From the NCBI GenBank assembly GCA_964415365.1, contig CAYPYW010000002.1, positions 26,264 through 90,263 on the forward strand: 64,000 nucleotides of DNA, read 5' to 3'. Positions 1-16,404 of this stretch are shown in pieces (the first letter of the stretch is position 1; the number at the start of each line of letters is the position of its first letter). The position numbers were made by a program, and so were the translations under genes. This DNA is from an uncultured Actinomycetota bacterium (GTDB lineage Bacteria; Actinomycetota; Humimicrobiia; Humimicrobiales; Humimicrobiaceae). The notes under the pieces are model-generated. The model was not told the origin of the DNA and did no database searches. It worked only from the letters and a program-made list of their open reading frames with translations.

Positions 1-1093
1 TCTCTCCCAGTAATTCAGAGAGTTTTGTATTCACGGTGGATTCAACGAAACCTTTCACTTCACTATTCCCCAGCTTTGTTTTGGTTTGTCCTTCAAATTG
101 CGGATTCTTTAATTTGACACTGATAATTGCGGTAAGCCCCTCTCTGATATCTTCACCTAAAAGATTTTCATCTTTTTCTTTAAGTATATTACTGCTGCGG
201 GCATAGTCATTTATAGTCCTGGTAATAGCTCCCTTGAAACCACTCAGGTGTGTTCCACCCTCCGTAGTATTTATATTGTTGGCAAATGAAAAAATACTTT
301 CTGAGTAACCACTGGTATACTGCATTGCAATTTCTACTTCGTGATCATCAACTACATTTTTAAAATATATTACTTTCTTATGCAAAACATCCTTTTTCTC
401 GCACAAATATTTTACAAAGTCCTCCACTCCACCTTCATACTGGTACACTTCTTTCTTTTCCGGCTTTCCTCTTGAATCTACCAGAGTAATCTTTAAACCT
501 TTGTTTAAGAAAGCCATCTCTTTCATCCTGCTGGCCAGTATCTCAAATTTATAATCAATATCTTCAAATATCTCTTTATCAGGGTAAAAAGTAATCGCGG
601 TACCATGAGTCTGAGTTTTTTCACCTTTAACAAGATTGGTAACCGGTTCTCCTCTCTTGAAATCCTGCTTGTAGATGTGACCATCTCTCCTTACTTCAAC
701 ACCCAGTTTTTCCGAAAGAGCATTCACCACAGAAACTCCAACACCGTGCAGCCCACCGGATACTTTATATCCTTCTCCGCCAAACTTCCCGCCGGCATGC
801 AACTTGGTAAGTACTATCTCCACCGCAGGTTTATTAAACTTTTCAACCTTCTTTACTGGTATTCCTCTACCATTATCCACTACAGTTACAGAATTATCCT
901 CATTCAATACAACCAGTATGTTGTCACAAAATCCAGCCATTGCCTCATCTATGCTGTTGTCTATCACCTCATAAATAAGATGGTGCAGGCCTCTGGACCC
1001 TGTGGAACCGATATACATACTTGGCCTTTTTCTGACTGCAGAAAGGCCTTCCAGAACTGTTATATCCTTAGCATCATAACTTGATTTTTTCAA
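1..1093 (-). CDS. gyrB: DNA gyrase subunit B, N-terminal part; the gene runs off the window start. Likely TTG start at 1093
   Basis: Minus-strand translation reads LKKSSYDAKDITVLEGLSAVRKRPSMYIGSTG...HGVGVSVVNALS...YEGG, the GHKL ATPase and transducer motifs of GyrB. GAGGAG lies 6 nt upstream of the TTG. The plus-strand ORF 605..1084 is antisense to it. Confidence 0.9.
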   Translation of the reverse strand, partial: MKKSSYDAKDITVLEGLSAVRKRPSMYIGSTGSRGLHHLIYEVIDNSIDEAMAGFCDNILVVLNEDNSVTVVDNGRGIPVKKVEKFNKPAVEIVLTKLHAGGKFGGEGYKVSGGLHGVGVSVVNALSEKLGVEVRRDGHIYKQDFKRGEPVTNLVKGEKTQTHGTAITFYPDKEIFEDIDYKFEILASRMKEMAFLNKGLKITLVDSRGKPEKKEVYQYEGGVEDFVKYLCEKKDVLHKKVIYFKNVVDDHEVEIAMQYTSGYSESIFSFANNINTTEGGTHLSGFKGAITRTINDYARSSNILKEKDENLLGEDIREGLTAIISVKLKNPQFEGQTKTKLGNSEVKGFVESTVNTKLSELLGE

Positions 1094-1301
1094 AAAAAAC
1101 TCCTCTAAAATTTATAGTTTCTCTTTTTTAAATATAGACAAAGGGCAATAAGTAAGCATTAAAACTACCTCTCTACCCATTACCCTTCCTGGCTTAAATA
1201 TAAATTTTTTTCTAAAATACTCGATAGTTTTATTAACTGACGACACTAAATATTATACCATATTTGACTTAAAATTTGCTTAAGAAATAGAATGGGCAGT
1301 C

Positions 1302-1595
1302 TCAAAGATTTTGCTTAAATCTTATGCTTTTAACTACTTCCTCTCCAATAAACGAATTTATTTTTTCAATCAACTGATTGGACATAAGACTCAGTTCATT
1401 TGCCCAAGTTGAAGTGGTAACAGATATGTATAGTATCCCTCTTGTTATTTTTTCGGGTTTCGCTTTTTTATATATTTCAGAACCCACAATTTCTTCCCAG
1501 CAGTTAAAGATATTGGATATATTTAATCTACTCCCTATATTCAAATCCTTTATAACATCCCCAATTATACTTCCAATGTCTTCAAACTCGCCCAT
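1302..1595 (-). CDS. DUF721-family protein typical of the recF-gyrB interval
   Basis: 97 aa with WEEIVG...TRGILYISVTTSTWANELSLM...IRFK, the DUF721 signature; it sits conserved between recF and gyrB. Confidence 0.7.
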   Translation of the reverse strand: MGEFEDIGSIIGDVIKDLNIGSRLNISNIFNCWEEIVGSEIYKKAKPEKITRGILYISVTTSTWANELSLMSNQLIEKINSFIGEEVVKSIRFKQNL

Positions 1596-1616
1596 GGTTA
1601 TATTATATGATACAGG

Positions 1617-2801
1617 TTACAAATCTGAAACTGCAATTTTATTATCTTTAATTAAAAACTTATTCCCAAATTCCAAATCCAGTTTATCAAGATAACTAAT
1701 ATTTGTAGTAGTTACAAAAGTCTGAAACTTATTACTCACTGCTTTAACAAGTAATTTCTTTCTTTCTATATCAAGTTCTGAAAATACATCATCCAGAAGG
1801 AGAACAGGATCTTTTTTTATTTTTTTTCTCAGGATATCCAGTTCACAGAGTTTCAGACTTATGGAGGCAATACGTTGCTGACCCTGTGAACCAAAAAACC
1901 TTATATTTTTGCCATCAAGCAAAATTACGAAATCATCCCTATGTGGTCCTACTGTGGTGGTCTTATATTGCAGGTCCTTTTCCAGGCTTTCTCTTAATTT
2001 CAAGTAAAATATGCTTTTAAAGTCACCCTCCATAAGACTTTCCTTCCTACAGCTTCCCGCATCCGGACAATCTATAAAATCATCCGGACTGTCTCCTCTG
2101 TCCCAGCTAAATACATAAAATAGATCAACTTTAATTCCTTTAAAGAAATCACTTACGTAACTCTTAAATTCAGAAGTGAATTCAGTCAATAGATTATATC
2201 TTTTTTTAATTATATCGGCCCCATATTTGACAATATTATCATCCCACACTTCCAGTGTAGAACTACCGACTGCATCAGCCTTTCTATTAAAACTTTTAAT
2301 CAAGCTACTTCTCTGAGTAAGTATTTTCTGGTACTGCAAACGCTGCCTGTAATACAGTGGGTCAACTTTTTCAAGTACACTATCGAGGAAACTCCTCCTG
2401 TCCATAGGACCTGCTTTTACAATCTTCAGATCATCAGGAGAAAATATAACTGAGGGGAGTATTGATGTAAAATCAGATTTTTTCCTCCGGGATATTTTGT
2501 CTACCTTTATTTTTATGTCATTGCCTTTCTGCAGCTCTATCTCTATAAAACGATCCGGTTCATCATTTTTCTCGGAACTAATTAAAGCCTTTATTACAGA
2601 ATAATTACTCTCCCAATTAATAATCTCATCCTGGCCGTAAGTTCTGTGAGACCTGCCAGTAGATAAATAATATATGGATTCCAGCAAATTGGTTTTACCA
2701 TTACCATTATTACCCAGAATAAGAATGGTATTTTTATCAAAATTCAAATTGACATGACTGTAATTCCTGTAATTTTTAAGTTCTAACTTTTTTAAATACA
2801 T
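1617..2801 (-). CDS. recF: DNA replication/repair protein RecF
   Basis: N-terminal LELKNYRNY...ILGNNGNGKTNLLESIYYLSTGRSHR (Walker A); C-terminal LLLDDVFSELD signature; position upstream of gyrB. Confidence 0.9.
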   Translation of the reverse strand: MYLKKLELKNYRNYSHVNLNFDKNTILILGNNGNGKTNLLESIYYLSTGRSHRTYGQDEIINWESNYSVIKALISSEKNDEPDRFIEIELQKGNDIKIKVDKISRRKKSDFTSILPSVIFSPDDLKIVKAGPMDRRSFLDSVLEKVDPLYYRQRLQYQKILTQRSSLIKSFNRKADAVGSSTLEVWDDNIVKYGADIIKKRYNLLTEFTSEFKSYVSDFFKGIKVDLFYVFSWDRGDSPDDFIDCPDAGSCRKESLMEGDFKSIFYLKLRESLEKDLQYKTTTVGPHRDDFVILLDGKNIRFFGSQGQQRIASISLKLCELDILRKKIKKDPVLLLDDVFSELDIERKKLLVKAVSNKFQTFVTTTNISYLDKLDLEFGNKFLIKDNKIAVSDL

Positions 2802-3011
2802 TATGCCGTAGTGAATCTCTTAACATTTTTAACGCTTTTTTATAAAACGGTTATGCAATTTTCACAAAAGTGATAACCTGTTTACGTGAGAAATATAATT
2901 TCAAATTTCCCATATTTAATGCTTTAAATAATATCACCTATGAATTAAAACTTGAACTTTATCTCTCCCTGCGACATGCCTGACAAACTGTATTGCGTAA
3001 AGTAAGATTTT

Positions 3012-3042
3012 TTTACAATTATTATAAATATTCTGGTATAAT
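3012..3042 (+). promoter_or_regulatory. Candidate sigma70 promoter for the nuoE-like/nuoF-gltD operon
   Basis: TTTACA, then an 18-19 nt spacer, then TGGTATAAT (extended -10) about 70 nt upstream of the start at 3111. Confidence 0.3.
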
Positions 3043-3110
3043 TTTTGAAATAAATTGAAGTATAGTTTCCCTGAAATATTATTTTTTTGATTTCTCTGGA
3101 AAGGAATACA

Positions 3111-3605
3111 ATGTGGATTGCAGATCTGCCCAAATATAAGTTACAGCCCAAAGAAGTGAAAAGAATTGATGAAATAATAGAAAAATATAAAGGCAAAAAA
3201 GGAGCATTAATTCCAATTCTACAGAAAATTCAGGAACATATTAGTTTCATACCGGTAGAAGCTCAGAGAAGAGTTGCAGAAACATTAGATATCCCTGAAA
3301 AGGATGTTTATGGAGTAGTAACTTTCTATTCATTCTTTTCTATGGTTCCCAGAGGCAAGTATAATATAAGGGTTTGCCTGGGTACTGCATGTTTTGTAAA
3401 GGGTGGTAAAAGGATTTTAGATAAACTGGTTAAGGAATTTGGTATTGAACCAGGACAGACCACTGCCGATAGGAATTATTCATTACAAATTAATAGATGC
3501 CTCGGTGCCTGCGGACTTGCACCGGTAATTGTAGTGAATGATAGATTCTACCAGAAAGTTAACCCTGAAAAAGTTATTGATATCGTTTATTCCTGTAAAA
3601 AATAA
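3111..3605 (+). CDS. NuoE/HndA-like thioredoxin-fold [2Fe-2S] subunit (NADH dehydrogenase 24-kDa family)
   Basis: CLGTACFVKGG...CLGACGLAPV four-Cys motif with the TFYSFF region typical of NuoE/HoxE. The ATG at 3111 has AAAGGAA upstream; the track's longer ORF begins at an upstream TTG. Confidence 0.85.
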   Translation: MWIADLPKYKLQPKEVKRIDEIIEKYKGKKGALIPILQKIQEHISFIPVEAQRRVAETLDIPEKDVYGVVTFYSFFSMVPRGKYNIRVCLGTACFVKGGKRILDKLVKEFGIEPGQTTADRNYSLQINRCLGACGLAPVIVVNDRFYQKVNPEKVIDIVYSCKK

Positions 3606-3655
3606 AATTTTATCCGTTTTTCCATGCCGGAATATTTAAAAAAAGGATTAAGTAA

Positions 3656-6600
3656 TTGAGTAAAAAAACTCTAAAAATAAAAATAAAAGATGACCTTGAC
3701 AATATTAAAAAAGAATTAAACAGAAAAAAAGCTTTAAATCTTAAAGGAAATAAACACAGGATAACTGTACATCTCGGAACCTGCGGCATAGCTTCAGGCG
3801 CAGAAACAATATGCGATCTAGTCAAAAAAGCAATAACTTCTGGAAAACGCCATAAGATTGAGTTTACCACCTCCGGATGCGTAGGATTTTGTGCTCTGGA
3901 GCCTATGTTAACCATTGAATCATATAATTTACCCACAGTTACCTACTATAGTCTTGATAAAGATAAGATAAGAAAAATATTCGAAAGCCATATAGATAAT
4001 AGTGAGATAGCAGAGGAGCTTGAACCGATAACCACAGATTCCAGACTAGCGGACTTTTATAAATATCAGGAATCTAGAGTTTTAAGAAACCGGGGTAAAA
4101 TTGATCCTTTTAAAATTGAGGATTATATCGCAAAAGACGGTTACTTTGGTTTAGCCAAGGCTATTGAGATTGGCGATCCTGATAAGATCATTAAAACTAT
4201 TTCAGAATCAGGCTTAAGGGGACGTGGAGGTGCAGGTTTTCCGACAGGCAAGAAGTGGGAGCTTTGTAAAAATGCCCAATCCAGGAGCGGGGTCAAATAT
4301 GTAGTATGTAATGGTGATGAAGGAGACCCTGGCGCTTTTATGGACAGAAACCTGCTTGAATCCGATCCACATTCCATCCTCGAAGGAATGCTGATATCAG
4401 CTCTGGTGATTGGTTCAAACAAAGGTTACTTATATATAAGGGCAGAATATCCTCTTGCAGTTCGGACTGTGGAACACGCAATAAGACAGGCAAAAGATTA
4501 TGGTCTGATAGGAAAAAATATACTGGGCAGTGATTTTGATTTTGATGTTGAAATATATCAGGGCGCAGGCGCGTTTGTATGTGGTGAAGAAACTGCACTT
4601 ATAAGGTCAATTGAAGGCGGAAGAGGAATGCCAAAACCAAAACCGCCATTTCCTGCCAATGAGGGACTTTACTCGGAACCTACACTTATTAATAATGTTG
4701 AAACATTTTCAAACATTCCGCAGATAATTCTAAACGGGGCAAAATGGTTCAACAGTATTGGAACTTCAACAAGCAAAGGGACAAAGATATTTGCTTTAAC
4801 CGGAGCAGTTAATAACATTGGACTTGTAGAGATACCCATGGGTATGACTGTAAGAGATATCGTTTTTAAAATTGGCGGAGGAATAAGAAAAGGAAAAAAA
4901 TTTAAAGCAGTACAATTAGGAGGCCCATCTGGTGGATGTATTCCTGAAAAATTCCTTGATATTCCCATAGACTATGAGAAAGTAAAAGAAGTTGGCGCAA
5001 TAATGGGTTCAGGGGGGATGATTGTCTTAGATGAAGATACTTGCATGGTAGACCTTTCGAAATATTTTATGAATTTCATCCAGGAAGAATCCTGTGGGCA
5101 GTGTGTACCCTGTAGAATTGGTACTAAAAGGATGTTAGAAATACTGGAAAGAATCACTAGTGGAGAAGGAGAAAAAGGAGATATTGAAAAACTTGAAAAG
5201 CTATCAGCTGTAATCAAAGAAACTTCTCTCTGTGGGCTGGGAAAAACTGCTCCCAATCCTGTGATTAACACCATCTGCTATTTCCGTGAAGAGTATGAAG
5301 CACATGTGAAATATAAAAGATGTCCAGCCGTTGTATGTAAAGAGATAATTTCATCGCCATGCCAGCACGTCTGCCCAATTGATACAGAGGCTTCAGTTTA
5401 TATATCTCTAATTGCTAAAAGACACTTTAGGGAAGCATTTGATATCATTCTTAAAGACAATCCCCTGCCGTCTGTTTGTGCCAGAGTATGTCATCACCCC
5501 TGTGAATCCAAATGTCTGGCTGGTAAATGGGAGAGCCCGATCGCTATAAGGGCACTTAAGAAGTTTGTTTCTGAATATGCGTTAAAGGAAGGAATATACA
5601 CTAAACTAATAAAAGAGCAAAAAACGGATGGAGAAAAAGTTGCAATAATCGGCTCAGGGCCAGCTGGTCTAATGGCTGGTTTTAGACTCGCAGATAAAGG
5701 ATATAATGTTACTATTTTTGAGGAATTGGACGTTCCGGGAGGAGCATTAGTTGCTTGCATACCAGAATACAGATTGCCCAGGAATGTGCTTAATATTGAT
5801 ATAGAAAATATTAAAAATTCAGGTGTGAAAATTAAAACAAATACCAGAATAGGAGTAGATATACTATTCAGTGAACTTTTAAGCAACTATAAAGCTGTAT
5901 TCATAGCTACGGGAGCCCATAAATCACGGAAGTTACGTATTTTAAATGAAAATGCAGAAGGTGTTATAGATGCCATGAAATTTCTAAGAGATATAAACAG
6001 TAACAAGAAAGTCAGTATAGGTAAAAATGTTGGGATTATTGGTGGTGGTAATGCTGCTATAGATGCAGCCAGGACTGCGGCCAGAATCAAAGATTGCAAT
6101 AAAGTCCTTATAATCTATAGGCGGACAAGAAAAGAAATGCCGGCATTTGGTGAAGAAATAACCGCTGCTATTGAAGAAGGAATTGAAATCCAGCTCCTTA
6201 CGGCTCCCACTAAGATAATAGCTAAAAATGGAAAGGTTACAGGGGTTGAATGTATAAAAATGAAGTTGGGAGAAGTAGATGAAAGTGGCAGAAGGAAACC
6301 CATTCCTATCAAAGGTTCGGAGTTTATCATTAACCTGGATACTCTAATTGTAGCGATTGGAGAGGATCCTGATCTTGGTTTTCTTGATGAAAAAAACAAA
6401 ATAGGAGTTTCTAAAAGAGGTACAATAGTAGTGTGCCCGGAAACATTAGCTACAAATATCGATGGAGTTTTCGCAGGTGGAGATGTTGTTACTGGTTCAA
6501 ATACTGTAATAGATGCCATGTCAGCAGGAAAAATTGCTGCAGAGATGATTGATAAATATATTAAAGGGAAAAATTTAGCCAGAGAATATAAACCATCTAG

Positions 6601-6820
6601 ACCTTCAATGTATGTAGTACCCCCCACAGGGTTAGCAGAAAGAGATATTGAAGAAGTAATGAGACCTGAAATACCCTGTCTTCCCGTAAATAAAAGAATA
6701 AATAATTTCAATGAGGTTAATTTAAATATAACAGAAGAAGTAGCAGTAAGAGAAGCCAGACGCTGCCTCAGGTGTGACTTAGAGACTGAAGATGGGAAAA
6801 AAGTAATACTTGAAAAATAG
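3656..6820 (+). CDS. Fusion protein: N-terminal thioredoxin-like [2Fe-2S] + NuoF-like FMN/NADH/[4Fe-4S] domain + GltD/NfnB-like FAD/NAD(P)H oxidoreductase with two N-terminal [4Fe-4S] clusters
   Basis: GLRGRGGAGFPTGKKWE and ESCGQCVPCRIG are NuoF 51-kDa motifs. Downstream come CARVCHHPCESKC, then the VAIIGSGPAGLMAG and GIIGGGNAAIDAARTA dinucleotide folds of the GltD/NfnB family. 1054 aa, TTG start. Confidence 0.85.
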   Translation: MSKKTLKIKIKDDLDNIKKELNRKKALNLKGNKHRITVHLGTCGIASGAETICDLVKKAITSGKRHKIEFTTSGCVGFCALEPMLTIESYNLPTVTYYSLDKDKIRKIFESHIDNSEIAEELEPITTDSRLADFYKYQESRVLRNRGKIDPFKIEDYIAKDGYFGLAKAIEIGDPDKIIKTISESGLRGRGGAGFPTGKKWELCKNAQSRSGVKYVVCNGDEGDPGAFMDRNLLESDPHSILEGMLISALVIGSNKGYLYIRAEYPLAVRTVEHAIRQAKDYGLIGKNILGSDFDFDVEIYQGAGAFVCGEETALIRSIEGGRGMPKPKPPFPANEGLYSEPTLINNVETFSNIPQIILNGAKWFNSIGTSTSKGTKIFALTGAVNNIGLVEIPMGMTVRDIVFKIGGGIRKGKKFKAVQLGGPSGGCIPEKFLDIPIDYEKVKEVGAIMGSGGMIVLDEDTCMVDLSKYFMNFIQEESCGQCVPCRIGTKRMLEILERITSGEGEKGDIEKLEKLSAVIKETSLCGLGKTAPNPVINTICYFREEYEAHVKYKRCPAVVCKEIISSPCQHVCPIDTEASVYISLIAKRHFREAFDIILKDNPLPSVCARVCHHPCESKCLAGKWESPIAIRALKKFVSEYALKEGIYTKLIKEQKTDGEKVAIIGSGPAGLMAGFRLADKGYNVTIFEELDVPGGALVACIPEYRLPRNVLNIDIENIKNSGVKIKTNTRIGVDILFSELLSNYKAVFIATGAHKSRKLRILNENAEGVIDAMKFLRDINSNKKVSIGKNVGIIGGGNAAIDAARTAARIKDCNKVLIIYRRTRKEMPAFGEEITAAIEEGIEIQLLTAPTKIIAKNGKVTGVECIKMKLGEVDESGRRKPIPIKGSEFIINLDTLIVAIGEDPDLGFLDEKNKIGVSKRGTIVVCPETLATNIDGVFAGGDVVTGSNTVIDAMSAGKIAAEMIDKYIKGKNLAREYKPSRPSMYVVPPTGLAERDIEEVMRPEIPCLPVNKRINNFNEVNLNITEEVAVREARRCLRCDLETEDGKKVILEK

Positions 6821-6850
6821 TACAATAGGAAGTTTAAATGGTATGAAAAA

Positions 6851-7678
6851 TTGGAAGACCAAGTCTCAAAATTAGGTAAAAAAATTAAAATTAAAAAAAT
6901 TAAATCCTCTCACGGCAGCACCAATCTAATTGATGTAATTCCCCTTGAATTACTTCTAACTATTTTTCTAAACGGTAAACATATTTCGACAATTTCGTGC
7001 TCGCCCGCTAATCTGATCGAACTTACAATTGGTTATCTAGCAAATAATGGTTATATTGTAAGTTATTCAGATATAGAGCTCTTAAAAATTTGTAGTAATA
7101 ATATAAATAAAGCTACCAGCAGAAATGATCTGACTTCAAGAATTGAAGTTAGCACAGCCGCTGGTAAAAATAATATCATATGCCCGGATAGCTTAAAATT
7201 CATACCTTCAGGATGCGGTAGTATTGATGATTTTGTACTTAAAAAAAGTTTAAAAAAGATAAAGAGCAATATCAGAACTTCATCAGATATTGTGCTTGGC
7301 TTAAATAAAAAAACTACAGACCATCAAAAGTATAAAAGGGAATTTGGAGGTTTACATAGTGCTGCTCTGTTCAATAAAGATGGAAATTTATTAAATCTAT
7401 TAGAGGATATTGGAAGACATAACTGTATAGATAAAATAGCCGGCTATATGCTTATAAAAAAAATACCTGCTCAAGATAAGATTATATTTACCACGGGTAG
7501 ATTAAGCATTGATGTAATCTGTAAAATTTGTAGGATGCAAATTCCAATTATAGTTACCAACTCTTCGGTAACTTTTAGTGCTGCCCAGCTTGCAAAAAAA
7601 ATAAATCTAACCGTTATTGGTTATGCCAGAAGCGGTAGATTTAATATTTACTCAGGATCAAGGAGGATACAGAGGTGA
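6851..7678 (+). CDS. fdhD: Formate dehydrogenase accessory sulfurtransferase FdhD
   Basis: GGLHSAALF...DIGRHNCIDKIAGY motif of the FdhD/NarQ family; TTG start; 4-nt overlap with the next gene. Confidence 0.8.
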   Translation: MEDQVSKLGKKIKIKKIKSSHGSTNLIDVIPLELLLTIFLNGKHISTISCSPANLIELTIGYLANNGYIVSYSDIELLKICSNNINKATSRNDLTSRIEVSTAAGKNNIICPDSLKFIPSGCGSIDDFVLKKSLKKIKSNIRTSSDIVLGLNKKTTDHQKYKREFGGLHSAALFNKDGNLLNLLEDIGRHNCIDKIAGYMLIKKIPAQDKIIFTTGRLSIDVICKICRMQIPIIVTNSSVTFSAAQLAKKINLTVIGYARSGRFNIYSGSRRIQR

Positions 7679-8565
7679 ATCTAACAGGAGTAATATTAGC
7701 AGGTGGTAAAAGCAGCAGATTCGGCTTCAACAAGTTAAAAATCAAAGTAGATTCAGTACCATTATTTATAGACCAGATTTTTAAATTAAGCTTTTTTTGT
7801 GATGAAATAATAATAAGCACCTCAAAAAGCAACTATTCCATTATTTTTTCTGAGTTAAATAAAATCAGAATATATCAAAAAAAATACAACTTCGAAAAAA
7901 TAGGAACTTCTAATCCAAAAATAAGCTTTAAAGATTTCCTTAAAAGAGTCACAAAACCTCTAAATATAAAAATTATTCCAGATGAAAGTAACTGTAGTAG
8001 CTCAACTATAAAAAGTCTTTCAAATGTTACCAACCCTGGAGGATTTAAATCAGATTATGATACAATTGGACCTATAATTGGTATTTATTCAAGTCTTATA
8101 AATGCTGCATATTTTTATTCCATAATCGTTGCATTTGATATGCCTTTTATTTCTTACAATTTGCTAAAACATTTGATTTATGAATCCGGAATAAATATTG
8201 AAAAAACAAGCATAGATAAATCAGTAACAATATCCAATTATCCCGGAAAAAAAGATGCTTGCATAATTAAGAGTGAAAAAGGGTTTGAAGTTCTCTGTGG
8301 ATTATACTCAAAGGGCTGTGTTGATATTTTAAAAGAGAATATTAAAAAACAAAAATATAAAATATCGGATATTTTTACTAACCTGGATATCGAAATCATT
8401 TCAAGCAAAAAATTAGAATCATTTAAAATTGATAATCTCAATTTTTTTAATATAAACCTGGTACCGGATTATTATAAATTTAAAAATATATGGCAAAATA
8501 AAAAGATTGCATCGGGTACTAAAAAATCATTTACGGAAGCATGGAATGATTTTTTCTTCAGGTAA
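7675..8565 (+). CDS. MobA-like molybdenum cofactor guanylyltransferase-family protein (longer than canonical MobA)
   Basis: N-terminal GVILAGGKSSRFG and a later IVAFDMPFIS motif fit the MobA NTP-transferase fold. GTG start 8 nt after AGGAGG; translationally coupled to fdhD. Confidence 0.55.
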   Translation: MNLTGVILAGGKSSRFGFNKLKIKVDSVPLFIDQIFKLSFFCDEIIISTSKSNYSIIFSELNKIRIYQKKYNFEKIGTSNPKISFKDFLKRVTKPLNIKIIPDESNCSSSTIKSLSNVTNPGGFKSDYDTIGPIIGIYSSLINAAYFYSIIVAFDMPFISYNLLKHLIYESGINIEKTSIDKSVTISNYPGKKDACIIKSEKGFEVLCGLYSKGCVDILKENIKKQKYKISDIFTNLDIEIISSKKLESFKIDNLNFFNINLVPDYYKFKNIWQNKKIASGTKKSFTEAWNDFFFR

Positions 8566-8618
8566 ATATAATTTTCAATCACTGATTTTCATATATTTGG
8601 AGAAAATTATGCTTTCAG

Positions 8619-9245
8619 TTAAAGAAGCTCAGAATGAATCTGTGGAATTCTATCTATTCCATAATTGGAAGGGAAAACACCTGTAGGACAAATATCCATA
8701 CATTCCATGCATTTTTCACAATATTTGAAATAGGAAGACTCGGGAATAAATATAACCTTTTTATCTGTTCCTCTTCCTACAAAACCCACAGCATTATTTC
8801 CCTTCACTTCTTTGCAATATCTTACACAAAGTCCGCAGAGAATACAGTAATTATTTTCCTTTTTAAACCTGGTCCCGCTTAACTTATACTTTCTGGCAAG
8901 TTTCTTTATCTCAGGATTAAAGGGAAACAATGCAAGATATAATTCCACCAGATTTTTTCTGATTTTTTCTACCGCAGGACTCTCCGTCTGGACTATGAGA
9001 CCTTCCTCTGCCGGGTAGGCACAGGATGCAACTATCCTTGATCTGCCCTTTCTTTCCACCTCAACAAGACACAGCCTGCAGGCACCGTGAGGTTTTATCT
9101 TTTCGTGATAGCATAAAGTAGGAACATGAATCCCTGCCTTCTTTGCAGCTTGAAGTATGGTATCACCGTGATTTATTTCGACATTTTTGTCATTCATGGT
9201 TAGATTAATTTTTTTCCTACTTGAATCTTCTTTTTTATCATTCAT
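8619..9245 (-). CDS. NuoG/HndD N-terminal-domain-like ferredoxin, [2Fe-2S] plus two [4Fe-4S], with no catalytic domain
   Basis: LCYHEKIKPHGACRLCLVEV (2Fe-2S), CILCGLCVRYC and CEKCMECMDICP (4Fe-4S). Start placed at the internal ATG 9245, which has AGGAGA 8 nt upstream; the track ORF extends to 9293. Confidence 0.7.
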   Translation of the reverse strand: MNDKKEDSSRKKINLTMNDKNVEINHGDTILQAAKKAGIHVPTLCYHEKIKPHGACRLCLVEVERKGRSRIVASCAYPAEEGLIVQTESPAVEKIRKNLVELYLALFPFNPEIKKLARKYKLSGTRFKKENNYCILCGLCVRYCKEVKGNNAVGFVGRGTDKKVIFIPESSYFKYCEKCMECMDICPTGVFPSNYGIDRIPQIHSELL

Positions 9246-9309
9246 AATTATGTTCTCCTGACCTTTATATTCTCTTGATCTTTTATAAATCAACTTTAAG
9301 TCTTTTAAC

Positions 9310-11223
9310 CTACGACTCCCCTTTCTCCAGCACTACTCCCTCTTTAACAAGGCCTGTCTTCTTTTCGATAGCACTGTATTTTTCCGGACAAGCTCCTATA
9401 CAGGATCCACATTTAATACAAATTTCGCTGTCTATAACATGTGGCTTTTTACTCTCACCTTTTATTGCATCCACCGGACATACTTTTACACAACTCCCGC
9501 AACCGACACATTTATTTTTATCAATAACATAATTTATCAGTGGCCTGCACATTTTTGCCGGACACATATTGTAATAAATATGAGCTTCATATTCCTCTTT
9601 AAAATATTTTAGCGTGGTAAGCACAATATTCGGGGCAGTGGTACCCAAAGCACACAGAGAAGCTTCCTTGAGCAACAGCGATAAGTCCGCCAGAAGTGTT
9701 AAATCTTCCTCTCTGCCCTTCCCTTCCATTATTCTCTCATAAATATAAAGCATCTGCCTTAAACCTTCTCTACAGGGAACACACTTTCCACATGACTCGT
9801 CAGCTAAAAATTTCAGGAAGTAATGAGCCACATTTACCATACAGGAAGATTCATCCATAACCACCATACCTCCGGATCCCATCATTGATCCCGCTTTAGT
9901 CAATTCATCAAAGTCCACAGGAAGGTCAAGCAGTTTCTCAGGAATCACTCCACCCGAAGGTCCACCGGTCTGTACCGCTTTAAATTTTTTGCTGTCCTTA
10001 ATTCCACCGCCAATTTTATAAATAATATCCCTTAAGCTTATTCCCATTGGGACTTCGACTAACCCCGTGTTTTTGACTTTACCAACAAGTGAAAATATTT
10101 TTGTCCCGGTACTATCCTTAGTTCCCATGCTCCTGAACCAATCAGCACCATTTTTTATGATTAACGGAACATTTGCAAAGGTTTCTACGTTATTTAGATT
10201 AGTCGGTTTACCCCAGAGCCCGCTTACAGAAGTATGTATATATTTCAACCTGGGCTCTCCTACACTGCCTTCAATAGCAGTAGTAAGTGCGCTTGATTCC
10301 CCGGATACATAAGAGCCAGCACCTTTATGAACTTTAATATCAAAATTAAATCCGGAACCCAAAATATTTTCTCCGATCAATCCACACTCTCTGGCCTGAT
10401 TTATAGCAATATTTAAATTCTCTACCGTTAACGGATACTCCTGTCTGACATAAACAAATCCCATATTAGAGCCAATAGCATATGCCCCAATCATTAAACC
10501 TTCCAGAACGCTGTGGGGATTCCCCTCTAATATTCCTCTATCCATATACGCACCTGGATCCCCTTCATCCGCATTAACGATTATATACTTTGGTTCACCT
10601 TCTGCACTCCTGGTAGTTTCCCATTTCACACCTGTCGGAAAACCGCCTCCTCCCCGGCCCCTTAAGCCAGATTTCTTCACTTCTTCTATAACCCCTTCCG
10701 GACTCATCTGCCCGAGGACCCGAGCAAGAGCCTGATATCCACCCATCCTGATGTAATCATCAATACTTCTTGAATCTATCTTTAAATGGCTATAAAGAAG
10801 AACCCTTTTCTGGAATTTATAAAAAGGAATATCAGATTCCTTAATTATCGGATTTCCATTATCATCCTTATAAAGAAGCCTTTCTACCACTCCCCCCTTT
10901 AAAGCCTCGCCGATTATTTCAGCAACATCTTCTTTCTTCACCCTCAAATAACAAATATCCTTTGGATAAACAACCACAATCGGACCCATCTCACAATACC
11001 CATGGCAGCCTGTCCTGCGGATAATAATTCTACCTTTTTCTTTCATATGATTTCTTTCAATCTCATCAAGCAAAGCAGAATAGATATCCTCCGAACCATA
11101 AGCCTTACAGCCAGGTCCGCTGCATATAGAAAATACTATATCAGCACTATCCAGTCGCTCCTGAAATTCCTTTGCCCTCTTTTGTAAATCCTGTAGAGAA
11201 TTTATTTTGTTATTAACGGTCAT
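9310..11223 (-). CDS. NuoF-like subunit of HndC/HydB type: N-terminal thioredoxin-like [2Fe-2S], FMN/NADH site, C-terminal 2x[4Fe-4S] ferredoxin
   Basis: GLRGRGGGGFPTG, ESCGKCVPCREG, CVGCGSCVKVCP and CIKCGSCIGACP motifs; GAAGGAG sits upstream of the ATG. Confidence 0.85.
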   Translation of the reverse strand: MTVNNKINSLQDLQKRAKEFQERLDSADIVFSICSGPGCKAYGSEDIYSALLDEIERNHMKEKGRIIIRRTGCHGYCEMGPIVVVYPKDICYLRVKKEDVAEIIGEALKGGVVERLLYKDDNGNPIIKESDIPFYKFQKRVLLYSHLKIDSRSIDDYIRMGGYQALARVLGQMSPEGVIEEVKKSGLRGRGGGGFPTGVKWETTRSAEGEPKYIIVNADEGDPGAYMDRGILEGNPHSVLEGLMIGAYAIGSNMGFVYVRQEYPLTVENLNIAINQARECGLIGENILGSGFNFDIKVHKGAGSYVSGESSALTTAIEGSVGEPRLKYIHTSVSGLWGKPTNLNNVETFANVPLIIKNGADWFRSMGTKDSTGTKIFSLVGKVKNTGLVEVPMGISLRDIIYKIGGGIKDSKKFKAVQTGGPSGGVIPEKLLDLPVDFDELTKAGSMMGSGGMVVMDESSCMVNVAHYFLKFLADESCGKCVPCREGLRQMLYIYERIMEGKGREEDLTLLADLSLLLKEASLCALGTTAPNIVLTTLKYFKEEYEAHIYYNMCPAKMCRPLINYVIDKNKCVGCGSCVKVCPVDAIKGESKKPHVIDSEICIKCGSCIGACPEKYSAIEKKTGLVKEGVVLEKGES

Positions 11224-11290
11224 TATTAAAAACTCCTTCTGTGAGCATTAGTATTTTAATTAACATTCATATCTTTTTAGATATTAGAGT

Positions 11291-12268
11291 CTAACTTAAT
11301 TGTTTTAATATTTTCTTTAAATAACTGGCCGAGGGATTACTGTAATACTTATTGTCAACCATAACTACCGGCCCCAACGCACAGCAACCAAGACAATTTA
11401 CAGTTTTAAGAGTAAATCTGTAATCACTGGTTGTATCTCCCGGTTTTACCCCCAGAACACTGGTAATTCTCTGAAGTAAATTCATCGCTCCCCTAACATG
11501 ACATGCCGTACCCATACAAGCTACAATGGAATATTTACCCTGTGGTTCCAAATTAAAATATTTGTAAAAAGTAGTAATACTGTAGATATCTGTAAGAGGA
11601 ATATCCAACTTCTTACCAAGATAAAGCAGAATATGTCTGGGAAGCCAGTTATACTCATTCTGAATATCCAGAAGTATTTGTATCAAATTACTTTTTTCAC
11701 AATTGTGGTGATCAATTACTTTATCTACTTCCCCAAAATCTTCCATTGCTTCTTCCAAAACTAACTCCTTTTCTCTCTTTATTTTATCTAAATCGCCAAG
11801 CCACTCAGTCAGCTGGCTCTGAATCACATTTATTCTCTCCATATCCCTATGACTCTCAAAAGCACTTTCATGACCGGTACCCGATGGGTGGCTAATATCA
11901 CCTCTTATCTTACTTCCAGTATCTACTTCCCTCTTATTTTTATCCGGACTATATTGTTTCGGTTTGGAACCGGCACTCCTCAAACCAAGGCCTGGCCTCT
12001 TCTTTATCTTATATTTTGCTTTTTTGTCCTTATAACCAGTTCTGTCTATCAATCCCTCTTTTTCCAACAGTTTTAAAGTCCGATAAATTGTAGCCTGCCC
12101 TATCCTGGGATGTTTTTTATGAGAGAGAAAGAATAATTCCTCCGCATCCAGTTCACCAGGACTTTTCAGCAAAATATCCAGAATAACCATCCTGGTTCCG
12201 GTAAGTCTGAACCCGCTCCTCTTTATTCTCTGTTTATAGGTATCGATATCTTTTTTATTATTCCCCAT
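11291..12268 (-). CDS. Fusion of a Fur-family winged-helix DNA-binding domain with a NuoE/HndA-like [2Fe-2S] thioredoxin-fold domain
   Basis: N-terminal RLTGTRMVILDILLKSPGELDAEELF...IGQATIYRTLKLLEKEGLI matches the Fur/PerR DNA-binding domain and is missing the Fur metal/dimerisation domain. A K-rich linker follows, then the NuoE motifs CMGTACHVRGA...CLGCCALGPV. Confidence 0.8.
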   Translation of the reverse strand: MGNNKKDIDTYKQRIKRSGFRLTGTRMVILDILLKSPGELDAEELFFLSHKKHPRIGQATIYRTLKLLEKEGLIDRTGYKDKKAKYKIKKRPGLGLRSAGSKPKQYSPDKNKREVDTGSKIRGDISHPSGTGHESAFESHRDMERINVIQSQLTEWLGDLDKIKREKELVLEEAMEDFGEVDKVIDHHNCEKSNLIQILLDIQNEYNWLPRHILLYLGKKLDIPLTDIYSITTFYKYFNLEPQGKYSIVACMGTACHVRGAMNLLQRITSVLGVKPGDTTSDYRFTLKTVNCLGCCALGPVVMVDNKYYSNPSASYLKKILKQLS

Positions 12269-12292
12269 CCTACAGGTTTGGATGATTATTTA

Positions 12293-12315
12293 TTGATAAT
12301 GATAATGATTTTCAA
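12293..12315. promoter_or_regulatory. Fur-box-like operator (GATAAT hexamer repeats) 25-47 bp upstream of the Fur-DBD::NuoE gene
   Basis: TTGATAATGATAATGATTTTCAA resembles the Fur consensus GATAATGATAATCATTATC. Confidence 0.5.
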
Positions 12316-12373
12316 TTTTATCCGTAATTATACTCCGGGGATTTATCCTGTCAACAAATGTATATTACAGTTA

Positions 12374-13189
12374 CTAATATATTCTTACTTTTGCCCCCAG
12401 GGGAAGCATCTCATACAGCCACTTTGCTTCCTCTAATTTTAATCTTATACATCCGTGACTGGCAGGAGTACCCAGTTTATCGTATTCCTCTTGAATCATT
12501 TGACCGTCTTCATCATAGGGAACACTGTGAAAGAGATAATCGCTATAAAACCTTACCCAGTAATAAGCTCCCATCTTATACTTATCATTCCAGAAGTAAT
12601 AACTCTTTTGCGTGGTCGTGAATTCTCCCGGCGGAGTCGGCTTCTCTTCAATACCTCCGGAGCATATCATTTCTTTTATCACATTATCTTTATAAAATAT
12701 AAAAACCTTCTGGAGGGAAAGGTTAACTTCTATTCTAAAATAATCCTTATTGGTAAAATCTATTTCCTCGCCTCCATTTTGCGAGGAATTGTCATTCTCA
12801 TTTTGCATTTCTTCACCGCCAGTCTGTCCCTGGTCCTCTATATTTTCCTCACCGTCAACCTCTTCCTCCACTTCTTCTTCGGTGAGAATATCCGAATCGT
12901 CATTTATGATATTTTCATCAATTTCGTCACTCAATAAATCCCCATTGTTAAATTCCCCGGAACCGGTCTCACCTAAATCATTACCGAAATCATTATTATT
13001 TTCCGGCAGAGAACTTAGATCATCTGTTTCCGCACTTCCTGATAAATCCTCTGTAATTTCCAATGATCCTTCTGAGGCTTCCGAATAATTCCTGCAGGAT
13101 AAAATCATGGTACAGGCAAATACACAAACCAAAAAAATATATACTACAATCATTATTTTGCTGCTAAATTTTTTTAAAAAACCACCCAT
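12374..13189 (-). CDS. L,D-transpeptidase (YkuD domain) with signal/TM segment and a long acidic low-complexity linker
   Basis: C-terminal ...GTPASHGCIRLKLEEAKWLY catalytic His/Cys motif; N-terminal hydrophobic segment; D/E-rich repeats. Confidence 0.75.
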   Translation of the reverse strand: MGGFLKKFSSKIMIVVYIFLVCVFACTMILSCRNYSEASEGSLEITEDLSGSAETDDLSSLPENNNDFGNDLGETGSGEFNNGDLLSDEIDENIINDDSDILTEEEVEEEVDGEENIEDQGQTGGEEMQNENDNSSQNGGEEIDFTNKDYFRIEVNLSLQKVFIFYKDNVIKEMICSGGIEEKPTPPGEFTTTQKSYYFWNDKYKMGAYYWVRFYSDYLFHSVPYDEDGQMIQEEYDKLGTPASHGCIRLKLEEAKWLYEMLPLGAKVRIY

Positions 13190-13353
13190 TTTGAAATACT
13201 GGTAATTCGCTTAACATAATAAAAGTCTTCGGAATTATTATAATGATTATTAAATTTTATAAAAGAAGGGTTCAAAAAATTTTTTTTATTAAATTTTATG
13301 GCATATTTGTTATACAATTATAAAAATTTTGTTATAATTCAATAAACTTGATA

Positions 13354-14319
<966 letters not shown>

Positions 14320-14384
14320 TTATCACAGAGTATAATTATTAGAGCGTATAATCATCAAGTCAAACAATCACAAGACAGATCATA

Positions 14385-15443
14385 ATGAATCTGGGAAAAA
14401 TAGAAAATTTACTGTATGATGAGCCATCTTACCGCCTGAAGCAGGTCGAGAAGGCTCTCTACAAAGATTTAATTGACAGCTGGAATGATGCCACAATCTT
14501 ACCGGTCGGGCTCAGAGAAAAATTGGGAAAAGAAACTCCAATTACTTTCGATTTTAATACAGCTACTTCTCTAAAAGGCAATTCGGTAAAAGTAATTACG
14601 AGATTAAAAGATGGACTGAATGTTGAATCTGTTTTAATGAAGCATACAAGAGGAAGAAACACAGTTTGCGTATCATCACAGGTCGGTTGTCCCCTAAACT
14701 GTATATTCTGCAGAACAGGAAAAGCAGGCTATATCAGGAATTTAAATCACTATGAAATTGTGGAGCAGGTATTACTTTTTTCATATTACTTGAAGAAAAC
14801 CGTTAAATTCGTAAAAAAGGAGGGATCTCTAAGAACCCGTGAAACCATAAAAAACATTGTCTTTATGGGTATGGGTGAACCATTTTTAAACTATGATAAT
14901 GTGACCAGAGCCATAAGATTTTTAAATGATAAGAATAAATTCAATATAGGAGCACGTCATATTTCTGTATCTACTGCAGGGATACCGGAAAAAATTAAAA
15001 AATTTTCATACGAGAATCTGCAGGTCAATCTGGCAGTCTCGTTGAACTCACCGGATGATAAAATCCGCCAGAAAATAATGCCTATCGCACTCAAATATCC
15101 GTTAAAAGAAATTATTGATGCTGTAAAATTTTATATTGAAAAAACCAACAGAAGAGTTATGTTCGAGTATATCATGATTAAAGACTTGAACGATTCGGAT
15201 ATTCTTGCCGGACAGCTTGTAAAACTACTCCACGGTCTTCTATGCTTTGTAAACTTAATTCCTTATAACGGGGAAGATTATAATCTCAGACCCACACCCC
15301 GAAAAAGAATAAATAAATTCAGAAGTATTCTTGAGAATGGCGGTATAACTATAACAGAGCGATTTCGATTCGGGGAAGATATAAACGCAGCATGTGGACA
15401 ATTAGCCTACAGAAAAATTTTTAAAGTGAAAAAAGAAACCTGA
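14385..15443 (+). CDS. rlmN: 23S rRNA m2A2503 methyltransferase RlmN/Cfr-family radical SAM enzyme
   Basis: CPLNCIFCRTG radical-SAM motif with the MGMGEP and GIPEKI family motifs. Confidence 0.85.
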   Translation: MNLGKIENLLYDEPSYRLKQVEKALYKDLIDSWNDATILPVGLREKLGKETPITFDFNTATSLKGNSVKVITRLKDGLNVESVLMKHTRGRNTVCVSSQVGCPLNCIFCRTGKAGYIRNLNHYEIVEQVLLFSYYLKKTVKFVKKEGSLRTRETIKNIVFMGMGEPFLNYDNVTRAIRFLNDKNKFNIGARHISVSTAGIPEKIKKFSYENLQVNLAVSLNSPDDKIRQKIMPIALKYPLKEIIDAVKFYIEKTNRRVMFEYIMIKDLNDSDILAGQLVKLLHGLLCFVNLIPYNGEDYNLRPTPRKRINKFRSILENGGITITERFRFGEDINAACGQLAYRKIFKVKKET

Positions 15444-15537
15444 ATATTTGACTATAATCTATAAATATTACATTATATTGCATATCATTTAATAATATCA
15501 AAGTATAGTGTCATTGCCTGAATATAAGGGGGACAGT

Positions 15538-16404
15538 ATGTCTGACTATGCCATTATCGCCGAGAATCTGACTTACTATTATGGCGATTTGATTGCTGTA
15601 AATCATATTAGCTTCAAAGTGGCCAGAGGGGAAATTCTGGGTTTTCTTGGCCCCAATGGCGCCGGTAAAACGACTACGATTAATATACTAACGGGGCAGA
15701 TGAAACCCAAAAGCGGACGAGCTATTTTACTTGATATAGATGTTGCTGAAGATGTTAAAAAAATAAAAGGAGATATTGGTGTCTGTTTCGAAACTACTAA
15801 TCTGTATGAGCAAATGACAGCTATTGAAAATCTAAACCTCTTTGCACGTCTCTTTGGCATCAAGTCTTTTGATGCCAATACATTGTTAAATCGTGTCGGT
15901 CTTGAGGGACGAGGAAGAGATCGGGTTGAGACTTATTCAAAAGGAATGAAACAGCGCCTCATGATAGCAAGATCGATAGTGAATCAGCCTAAAATTCTAT
16001 TTCTTGATGAACCCACAGCGGGACTTGACCCGACCTCATCCAAAGCTATCCATAATATTATTGCGCAGGAGAGAAACCGGGGGGCCACCGTGTTTCTTAC
16101 TACCCATGATATGGTGGAAGCCGATAAACTTTCCGACCGGGTTGCTTTCATGAACCAGGGCAGAATCGTGGCTCTGGACACACCACTTAATCTTAAACAG
16201 CGATATGGTAAACGTGCTCTTAGAGCAAAGGTAATTACACCAGGCGGTAAATTTGAAGATCGTGAGATTGCACTCGACACAACTAATACACCAGACAGTG
16301 TTAAAGAACTTCTTTCTAATGAAAAAGTTATCACTATTCACAGCAGGGAAGCCACCCTCGAAGATATATTCATTAAGATTACAGGACGGGGTCTTGTAGA
16401 GTGA
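15538..16404 (+). CDS. ABC transporter ATP-binding protein (ABC-2 exporter type)
   Basis: GPNGAGKTT Walker A, LSGGMKQRL-like signature (YSKGMKQRL) and ILFLDEPTAGLD Walker B. ATG at 15538 has AAGGGGG upstream. Confidence 0.85.
   Translation: MSDYAIIAENLTYYYGDLIAVNHISFKVARGEILGFLGPNGAGKTTTINILTGQMKPKSGRAILLDIDVAEDVKKIKGDIGVCFETTNLYEQMTAIENLNLFARLFGIKSFDANTLLNRVGLEGRGRDRVETYSKGMKQRLMIARSIVNQPKILFLDEPTAGLDPTSSKAIHNIIAQERNRGATVFLTTHDMVEADKLSDRVAFMNQGRIVALDTPLNLKQRYGKRALRAKVITPGGKFEDREIALDTTNTPDSVKELLSNEKVITIHSREATLEDIFIKITGRGLVE

Follow-up and report, generated by a model that had tools for sequence, protein, structure and literature searches.

A NuoF::GltD fusion protein as the probable pyridine-nucleotide subunit of a formate dehydrogenase, orphaned by deletion of fdhA

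The protein analyzed here is a single 1054-residue polypeptide encoded in a 64-kb stretch of DNA (the window, in what follows) from an uncultured Actinomycetota bacterium. It joins a NuoF-type unit, resembling the BfuB subunit of electron-bifurcating (Bfu) enzymes with its flavin mononucleotide (FMN) and NADH site, to a GltD-type unit, resembling the part of the Stn transhydrogenase that holds flavin adenine dinucleotide (FAD) and NADP(H). The fusion is probably the beta (pyridine-nucleotide) subunit of a soluble formate dehydrogenase of the HydABC/Bfu type, linked to both NAD(H) and NADP(H). In the window the gene for the catalytic subunit, fdhA, has been precisely deleted, with fdhD and mobA retained, and the fusion is therefore an orphaned subunit here. 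The family to which it belongs is widespread and apparently undescribed, no description of a NuoF/HydB::GltD fusion having been found in the openly searchable literature on Bfu, Stn, Nfn, HydB, HydDB, and formate dehydrogenases.

Continuity of the fusion gene

The fusion gene begins with a TTG codon, preceded at 7–8 nt by an AGGA motif, and is read without interruption over 1054 codons. A preliminary description of the locus, made from the letters of the sequence, had proposed such a single polypeptide, and its relatives are indeed of the same length. Almost all of the best 120 database matches (48–93% identity) measure ~1011–1090 aa and cover 94–100% of the query, apart from three shorter or partial entries at 79–82%; an exact-sequence look-up of the protein itself found no record. 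The same fusion is present in 54 of the best 80 loci, drawn from species-representative genomes. In an alignment of 41 sequences, the residues H550, C556, C561, C569, C573, and P574, which span the junction, are invariant. Calculated against a relative with 91.5% nucleotide identity, the NuoF half has a ratio of nonsynonymous to synonymous substitution rates (dN/dS) of 0.10 and the GltD half one of 0.15. Over the four intact open reading frames (ORFs) nuoE, nuoF::gltD, fdhD, and mobA, dN/dS lies between 0.07 and 0.27. As judged from these substitution ratios, the fusion gene is under purifying selection. The full-length homologues, the invariant residues, and the low dN/dS bear out the continuity of the junction at nucleotides 5300–5450, and a frameshift as the source of the fusion is excluded on these grounds.

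The domain order originally claimed was reproduced by domain search with Pfam. Structure prediction with AlphaFold2 (AF2) gave a model with a mean predicted local distance difference test (pLDDT) score of 86.5 and a predicted template modelling (pTM) score of 0.77. A Foldseek search with this model retrieved BfuB chains, with TM-scores per target of up to 0.96, and the GltD parts of NfnA and StnC. No solved chain spanning both halves was retrieved by Foldseek, the top TM-score per query being 0.51. The expected NuoE-like partner is also present (Table 1); its top NCBIfam matches are HoxE and NuoE, and its sequence contains the motifs CLGTAC and CLGAC. A nuoE-like gene stands directly 5' of the fusion in nearly all related loci whose contig extends far enough. 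Scans for tRNA genes and Rfam families gave nothing of relevance at the locus, and promoter and terminator matches within 2750–8700 were no more numerous than in shuffled sequence and are thus uninformative.

The NuoF half is of the bifurcating type

By homology, the N-terminal 565 residues are a NuoF of the bifurcating type (BfuB, HydB/StnB). Pfam assigns Complex1_51K to residues 182–355 (E = 2.2e-47), SLBB weakly to residues 379–427, and NADH_4Fe-4S to residues 467–550 (3.6e-34). Among proteins of solved structure, those nearest to it are A. mobile NiFe-HydB, S. ovata StnB, HydB of A. woodii and T. kivui, and NfnB of Nfn-Bfu. Scores reach ~620–656 bits against bifurcating B subunits, compared with ~400 bits or less against FdsB and NuoF of complex I. 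For the segment 413–566, most bifurcating HydB/StnB/NfnB chains give 215–239 bits, T. maritima HydB and the tungsten aldehyde oxidoreductase subunit 172–176 bits, and the non-bifurcating FdsB 84–104 bits. The ligands of the N3/B1 [4Fe-4S] cluster, C480, C483, C486, and C526, are invariant in the family alignment together with the glycine-rich loop.

A site built of His and Cys residues is found in virtually all bifurcating BfuB proteins and is absent from non-bifurcating homologues (Schut et al. 2022, PMC9304861). In A. mobile BfuB it consists of C438, C476 (Thr in FeFe enzymes), H525, C531, and C536 (PMC9304861). The residues C463, T501, H550, C556, and C561 of the fusion match these one by one and are invariant in the 41 sequences, with the H-x5-C-x4-C hallmark kept. 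Complex I NuoF was considered and ruled out, since TIGR01959 gives 491.6 against a cut-off of 558.65 and the gene does not lie in a nuo (nuoA-N) operon here. The model NF010120 is passed marginally (389.7 vs 389), which explains the label "NuoF" that relatives carry in databases.

The N-terminus carries the HndB-like, thioredoxin-type 2Fe-2S domain that the preliminary description had noted; it had been called an extra domain, but is standard in BfuB, HydB, and StnB of the bifurcating type, where the B5 domain is of a [2Fe-2S]/Zn kind. The Pfam match to 2Fe-2S_thioredx at residues 32–110 is weak (E = 5.9e-4; 20.2 bits, under the 24.8-bit cut-off). The homology is nevertheless confirmed by alignments to solved BfuB chains, which start at residue 35–37, and the AF2 model is confident over this region. 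At the candidate B5 site, C75 and C79 do not vary, residue 39 is His in 23 and Cys in 15 of the 41 sequences, and position 43 is Cys in 26/41, with a Cys at 44 instead in 14. The candidate ligand set is thus one His and three Cys in the present protein and four Cys in 15/41 relatives.

A permuted GltD module replaces the ferredoxin-like domain

The GltD/NfnL module stands exactly where canonical BfuB has its ferredoxin-like domain with two [4Fe-4S] clusters (B3/B4). The exchange can be followed by comparison with a paralogue in the window (9310–11223, minus strand), which is 47% identical to the fusion and has the canonical BfuB architecture. After the EYEAH..CPA..C motif common to both, the paralogue goes on with the C-x2-C-x2-C-x3-CP of the ferredoxin-like domain. 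In the fusion, an 11-residue gap deletes the first CxxC of CxxCxxCxxxCP and leaves C569-x3-C573-P; in this alignment the remaining CxxxCP is the PCxxxCP of GltD. Ferredoxin-type families (such as Fer4, Fer4_7, or Fer4_10) have no Pfam match in the fusion, whereas the paralogue is matched at residues 564–613.

Downstream of this point, Pfam recognizes Fer4_20 (residues 546–646, 4.3e-24) and Pyr_redox_2 (residues 661–958, 8.4e-33). The GSGPAG motif for FAD, the GxGxxA/YRR signature for NADP(H), and the Arg of IPEYRLP are conserved, and R706, G796, A801, Y821, R822, and R823 are invariant in the family alignment. As read from the alignments, the missing CxxC is supplied by an 80-residue C-terminal tail (975–1054), unmentioned in the preliminary description, whose conserved CxxC (C1037, C1040) is kept in 40/41 sequences. 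Residues 1006–1043 (..EARRCLRCDLE) give separate HMMER domain matches to P. furiosus NfnI-L 11–48 and T. maritima NfnB 15–43, and residues 567–1041 align contiguously with StnC 102–566 and with NfnA-Bfu. Because the tail matches the N-terminus of NfnL, the module is a circular permutation of the NfnL/GltD order, as in StnC. Two [4Fe-4S] clusters would be accounted for by C1037, C1040, C569, C573, C608, C612, C616, and C620. K635 is invariant and, in the alignment with StnC 102–172, corresponds to StnC K170 and to a Glu of NfnL; this position is that of the proximal-cluster ligand, Glu in NfnL and K170 in StnC (PMC10482914).

Operon context and partners across relatives

The order nuoE-nuoF::gltD-fdhA-fdhD-mobA is found in all six closest relatives (73–93% identity, plus one more distant complete genome). 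Their FdhA has a NuoG-like N-terminus, the motif HCAR[LI](C/U)H with either Cys or a TGA-encoded selenocysteine (Sec), and the Arg of PLRGQNNVQG. With these catalytic motifs kept, it looks catalytically competent, unlike the FdhF-like domain of StnC.

Over the 54 fused loci, the partner is FdhA in 18, an [FeFe] HydA in 17 (Pfam-verified in two; Fe_hyd_lg_C), a short NuoG-like protein with clusters only (short BfuA, 223–408 aa) in 10, and an HdrA-like fusion in one; the other eight were assigned no class. According to the titles of the database records, the hosts belong to Desulfobacterota, Chloroflexota, Acidobacteriota, Armatimonadota, Verrucomicrobiota, Nitrospirota, Omnitrophota, Planctomycetota, Bacteroidota, Spirochaetota, Gemmatimonadota, Alphaproteobacteria, Bacillota, and Actinomycetota, together with one Asgard archaeon and one other archaeon. 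The relatives of the window itself are Candidatus (Ca.) Hydromicrobium / Ca. Humimicrobiaceae (Actinomycetota, class Ca. Humimicrobiia). The architecture crosses the domains of life, since in two archaeal metagenome-assembled genomes (L029, Promethearchaeota Loki_b31, 9568–13803; L049, uncultured archaeon) nuoE-nuoF::gltD stands ahead of a short NuoG-like gene. In a rough neighbour-joining tree of NuoF cores, drawn without bootstrap, fused and unfused BfuB proteins are interleaved and the partner types cluster.

Two related loci show further peculiarities. In L002, the gene next after the fusion (11248–14859) joins a NuoG-like N-terminus to HdrA-like Pyr_redox_2/Fer4 regions and contains an in-frame TGA that may encode selenocysteine. 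In L085, from a 2.59-Mb genome, an additional gene for a 126-aa thioredoxin-like 2Fe-2S protein (9609–9989) lies between nuoE and the fusion, and fdhA is split (351 + 539 aa) at a probable Sec TGA.

Deletion of fdhA in the window

The last position of the fusion gene is 6820, and the TTG start codon of fdhD lies at 6851. What is left of fdhA, just upstream of fdhD, is its ribosome-binding site and start codon in a two-codon remnant (ATG GTA TGA). Compared with the related loci L086 and L092, identity is 91.5% up to position 6840, at the ATG of fdhA, and resumes at 91% in the intergenic sequence between fdhA and fdhD; by comparison with L092, the window has lost ~2.79 kb. Similar short sequences are found at the ends of the fusion gene and of fdhA and are a plausible substrate for the deletion. 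A separately assembled Logan contig of 1060 bp (L091), found by look-up with FdhD, has the identical junction at 100% identity. A tblastn search with three FdhA sequences detected no FdhA in the whole window and returned a 224-aa NuoG-like ORF (31% identity) as its sole match, by which an fdhA elsewhere in the window is ruled out.

Both genes downstream of the scar are intact (Table 1). The dN/dS of fdhD is 0.15 against L090. In the MobA-like protein, NTP_transf_3 matches residues 5–54 and 127–266, implying an insertion of ~70 aa, and every NCBIfam MobA model stays under its cut-off.

Table 1. Position of the fusion gene, its domains, and the associated genes in the window
Feature	Coordinates	Strand	Description
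NuoE/HydC/BfuC-like [2Fe-2S] subunit, partner of the fusion	3111..3605	+	164 aa; Pfam 2Fe-2S_thioredx 1.6e-51
NuoF::GltD fusion gene	3656..6820	+	1054 aa; BfuB-type unit (NADH/FMN) followed by Stn-type unit (NADP(H)/FAD)
N-terminal thioredoxin-like domain, BfuB "B5" site	3749..4000	+	residues 32–115; candidate ligands H39, C43, C75, C79
NuoF core: FMN/NAD(H) site, SLBB, N3/B1 [4Fe-4S], Bfu hallmark site	4073..5341	+	residues 140–562
GltD-type Fe-S domain	5354..5593	+	residues 567–646; C569-x3-C573-P, C608/C612/C616/C620, K635
FAD (GSGPAG) and NADP(H) (GGGNAA ... YRR) dinucleotide folds	5627..6571	+	residues 658–972
C-terminal permuted segment with C1037-x2-C1040	6671..6784	+	residues 1006–1043; counterpart of the canonical NfnL/NfnB N-terminus
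Scar of deleted fdhA: ribosome-binding site and start codon, ATG GTA TGA	6821..6846	+	by comparison with L086/L092
fdhD (formate dehydrogenase sulfurtransferase)	6851..7678	+	intact; Pfam FdhD-NarQ 1e-61; TIGR00129 171 vs 140.9-bit cut-off
mobA-like molybdenum cofactor guanylyltransferase	7675..8565	+	intact; NTP_transf_3 in two stretches

Proposed function and alternative readings

In solved Bfu enzymes, mid-potential electrons pass via BfuA and B1 to FMN, where NAD+ is reduced, and low-potential electrons leave by way of C1, a mobile cluster of the NuoE type, reach B3/B4, and are passed on to ferredoxin (PMC12018979). In the complete enzyme of the relatives, electrons would move between the molybdenum/tungsten centre of FdhA and FMN via the FdhA clusters and B1. 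Transfer between FMN and FAD would proceed through the [2Fe-2S] cluster of NuoE and the two [4Fe-4S] clusters of the GltD module. NADP(H) would thereby occupy the position held by ferredoxin in HydABC or StnABC, a placement on the ferredoxin branch that we infer from the domain arrangement. Given these two routes, CO2/formate would be coupled to both NAD(H) and NADP(H) in the complete complex. The NuoE and NuoF::GltD pair of the window might at most transfer electrons between NADPH and NAD+, possibly via another partner, and would otherwise be a recently orphaned remnant.

Several points weigh against this assignment. The family is without the B3/B4 domain, a constant part of bifurcating enzymes according to Schut et al., so that bifurcation may be lost or ferredoxin may dock elsewhere. 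The preference of the FMN site for NAD(H) over NADP(H) is assumed by homology. Formate (−420 mV) can reduce both NAD+ and NADP+ without energetic coupling, which leaves the benefit of the architecture uncertain at standard conditions. Finally, the catalytic partner is absent from the operon of the window copy.

A further step can be proposed, though tentatively: NuoE with NuoF::GltD could constitute an unrecognised branch of the Bfu family, in which NADP(H) replaces ferredoxin as the low-potential partner by way of the GltD clusters, giving formate dehydrogenases and [FeFe]-hydrogenases that confurcate NADH and NADPH. In the reverse direction, electrons from formate or H2 would be split between NAD+ and NADP+. 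At physiological potentials of −280 mV for NADH and −380 mV for NADPH (PMC9304861), our own estimate is that their co-oxidation (mean ~−330 mV) would sustain ~150 Pa H2 and that of NADH alone ~3 Pa, a build-up of H2 or formate ~50-fold higher. Because of this higher level, the coupling would be useful to fermenters. If it is true, fermenters and syntrophs would possess a ferredoxin-independent means of disposing of both nucleotide pools.

A second reading, which is rather doubtful, concerns only the window: nuoE, nuoF::gltD, fdhD, and mobA may all have become functionless after the loss of fdhA, with lesions not yet accumulated. The deletion of the catalytic subunit is consistent with such decay, as are the failure to detect any enzyme with molybdenum bis-pyranopterin guanine dinucleotide (Mo-bisPGD) in the 64-kb window and the lack of any known role for FdhD without a formate dehydrogenase. 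However, the four ORFs are intact with the low dN/dS given above, the start and upstream signals of fdhD were preserved by the deletion, and a second fdhA could lie outside the window.

It is less likely still that the complete enzymes are plain formate dehydrogenases or hydrogenases with a diaphorase for two cofactors, NADH at FMN or NADPH at FAD, and with neither bifurcation nor confurcation. At standard potential, the transfer of electrons from formate or H2 is exergonic with either nucleotide (potentials from PMC9304861, Table 1), the FAD site of the Stn type is considered non-bifurcating (PMC10482914), and the loss of B3/B4 points in the same direction. Against this stand the strict conservation of the hallmark His and Cys site and the N-terminal domain, a combination that non-bifurcating HydB/FdsB homologues lack, and the attachment of the module to the NuoE-gated side instead of the BfuA side as in Stn.

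The preliminary description had seen in the fusion a concatenation of StnB with StnC, or of NfnB with NuoF, which are separate in described bifurcating transhydrogenases; this amounts to reading it as a stand-alone bifurcating transhydrogenase. The first idea holds in so far as a StnB/HydB-like NuoF and a StnC-type NADP(H) module are united in one chain, the closest solved relatives of both halves being Stn/Nfn-Bfu proteins. It is not a simple concatenation, however: the ferredoxin-like domain of StnB/HydB is missing, the NuoG-like and FdhF-like parts of StnC are absent, and the GltD module is permuted relative to NfnB/GltD. The second idea, an electron-bifurcating NADH/NADPH/ferredoxin transhydrogenase of the Stn/Nfn kind formed by NuoE and NuoF::GltD and perhaps recruiting the 224-aa NuoG-like protein (8619–9293), seems improbable. 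The domain content, a StnB core with the NADPH module of StnC, would suit it, and ten related loci have the short NuoG-like partner alone, with no catalytic domain. These short partners from other lineages are 41–44% identical to the 224-aa protein, vs 30–33% for the FdhA N-terminus. Moreover, the window retains intact genes under purifying selection in a genome without fdhA at this locus. On the other hand, dN/dS is averaged over the entire divergence and is no proof of constraint since the deletion. The context also speaks against it: fdhA follows immediately in the operon of all six closest relatives, and fdhD and mobA are still downstream here. In addition, the fusion has no B3/B4 domain for binding ferredoxin. 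As for the 224-aa protein, it is part of a separate operon that has a BfuB and a NuoE of its own and that recurs in L081, which contains fdhA.

An artefact, in which a sequencing or assembly frameshift joined nuoF to gltD or mis-assembly removed fdhA, can be dismissed with near certainty in view of more than 120 independent full-length homologues, 54 fused loci in species-representative genomes, invariant residues over a junction that lies inside a cluster-binding motif completed by the C-terminal tail, and the separately assembled contig that reproduces the deletion junction at 100% identity.

Neighbouring genes

A second, divergently transcribed Bfu-like set lies at 8619–11223 on the minus strand. 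It comprises the paralogue used above, a 637-aa canonical HydB/BfuB-like protein with a 2x[4Fe-4S] C-terminal domain, and the 224-aa protein (8619–9293, minus strand), which corresponds to the NuoG N-terminus only, with one 2Fe-2S and two [4Fe-4S] sites; the set is without a catalytic domain. At 11291–12268 (minus strand), a 325-aa protein joins a Fur-family DNA-binding domain (17–89) to a complete NuoE-like, thioredoxin-type 2Fe-2S domain (181–323). It is conserved in L081 (328 aa) and may serve as a regulator that senses redox state or as a subunit with a moonlighting role. On the other side, recF is located at 1617–2801 (minus strand), and dciA, gyrB, and gyrA stand alongside in relatives, so that the operon adjoins a replication-associated gene cluster. 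The strand composition switches near 2800–3000, tracking gene orientation.

Implications

In current descriptions of Bfu enzymes, the BfuBC core does not vary, the ferredoxin-like B3/B4 domain is counted as part of it, and ferredoxin is placed on that branch (PMC9304861, PMC12018979). The fusion family breaks this rule in many bacterial lineages and in Asgard archaea, under a database label that is merely "NuoF". The HydDB rule for the A2 class of hydrogenases specifies a GltD domain "but not NuoF" (PMC5037454), and would place the hydrogenase-linked members among ordinary bifurcating A3 enzymes. The wording suggests that such proteins have been met before and filed as ordinary bifurcating enzymes. 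If NADP(H) is indeed located on the ferredoxin arm, the family would be a natural experiment on the Bfu gate, and metabolic reconstructions of these lineages, in which the hydrogenases and formate dehydrogenases concerned are currently assigned "NADH + ferredoxin", would need revision. Furthermore, the operon of the window, intact except for the cleanly removed fdhA, provides a concrete variant without formate dehydrogenase in a Ca. Humimicrobiia-like actinomycete.

Comparison with known systems

The NADP-dependent FdhAB of Moorella thermoacetica and SfrAB of Geobacter combine a metal-dependent, FdhA-like subunit with an NADP-binding Fe-S flavoprotein subunit (PMC5736913, PMC7483475). In published descriptions, their beta subunits have no NuoF/FMN unit and so differ from the fusion.

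NfnSL/NfnAB (P. furiosus 5jca, T. maritima 4ylf) shares the FAD and NADP(H) folds and the two [4Fe-4S] clusters, the GltD half being 42–44% identical to NfnL/NfnB. In NfnL, however, the CxxC is N-terminal and the proximal-cluster ligand is Glu, whereas the fusion has a C-terminal CxxC and Lys. An NfnS/PyrK-like partner was not found among the operon-adjoining ORFs scanned (605–18517), and a canonical NfnSL is ruled out by topology, ligand, and partner.

FdsABG (R. capsulatus / C. necator), HylABC-FdhF2 (G. acidurici), and "Fdh-Bfu" follow the same operon logic as the relatives of the window, with NuoE-like and NuoF-like subunits, an FdhA with a NuoG-like N-terminus, and FdhD, but none has a GltD module. 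FdsB also possesses the N-terminal thioredoxin-like domain; it differs in having no hallmark His site, with 84–104 bits in the C-terminal NuoF region.

With HydABC/HydABCSL (references T. maritima 7p5h, A. woodii 7q4v, T. kivui 8a6t, and A. mobile 7t2r) the fusion shares the BfuB core with FMN, B1, the hallmark His/Cys site, and the N-terminal domain, as well as the NuoE-like subunit and, in 17 loci, a HydA partner. It differs by the absence of the C-terminal ferredoxin-like domain and by the added FAD/NADP(H) module.

The closest likeness in the solved proteins is to StnABC/NfnABC (Nfn-Bfu; S. ovata 8oh5, C. saccharolyticus 9bov, T. sibiricus 9n5u). The NuoF half is 50–52% identical to StnB/NfnB, and the GltD half scores highest with the GltD module of NfnA, at 396 bits for C. 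saccharolyticus and 367 bits for T. sibiricus; the module of StnC gives 334 bits, about equal to P. furiosus NfnI-L (338 bits). Shared features are the circular permutation, with CxxC after the dinucleotide folds, the Lys at the position of StnC K170, and the NuoE-like partner. In Stn/Nfn-Bfu, however, the GltD module is inside BfuA (NuoG-like), on the mid-potential branch, and BfuB retains B3/B4, whereas in the fusion the module sits on BfuB and replaces B3/B4, in a polypeptide with neither a NuoG-like nor a molybdopterin domain. Moreover, the FdhF-like domain of StnC is catalytically dead, while the FdhA partners of the fusion family retain their catalytic residues.

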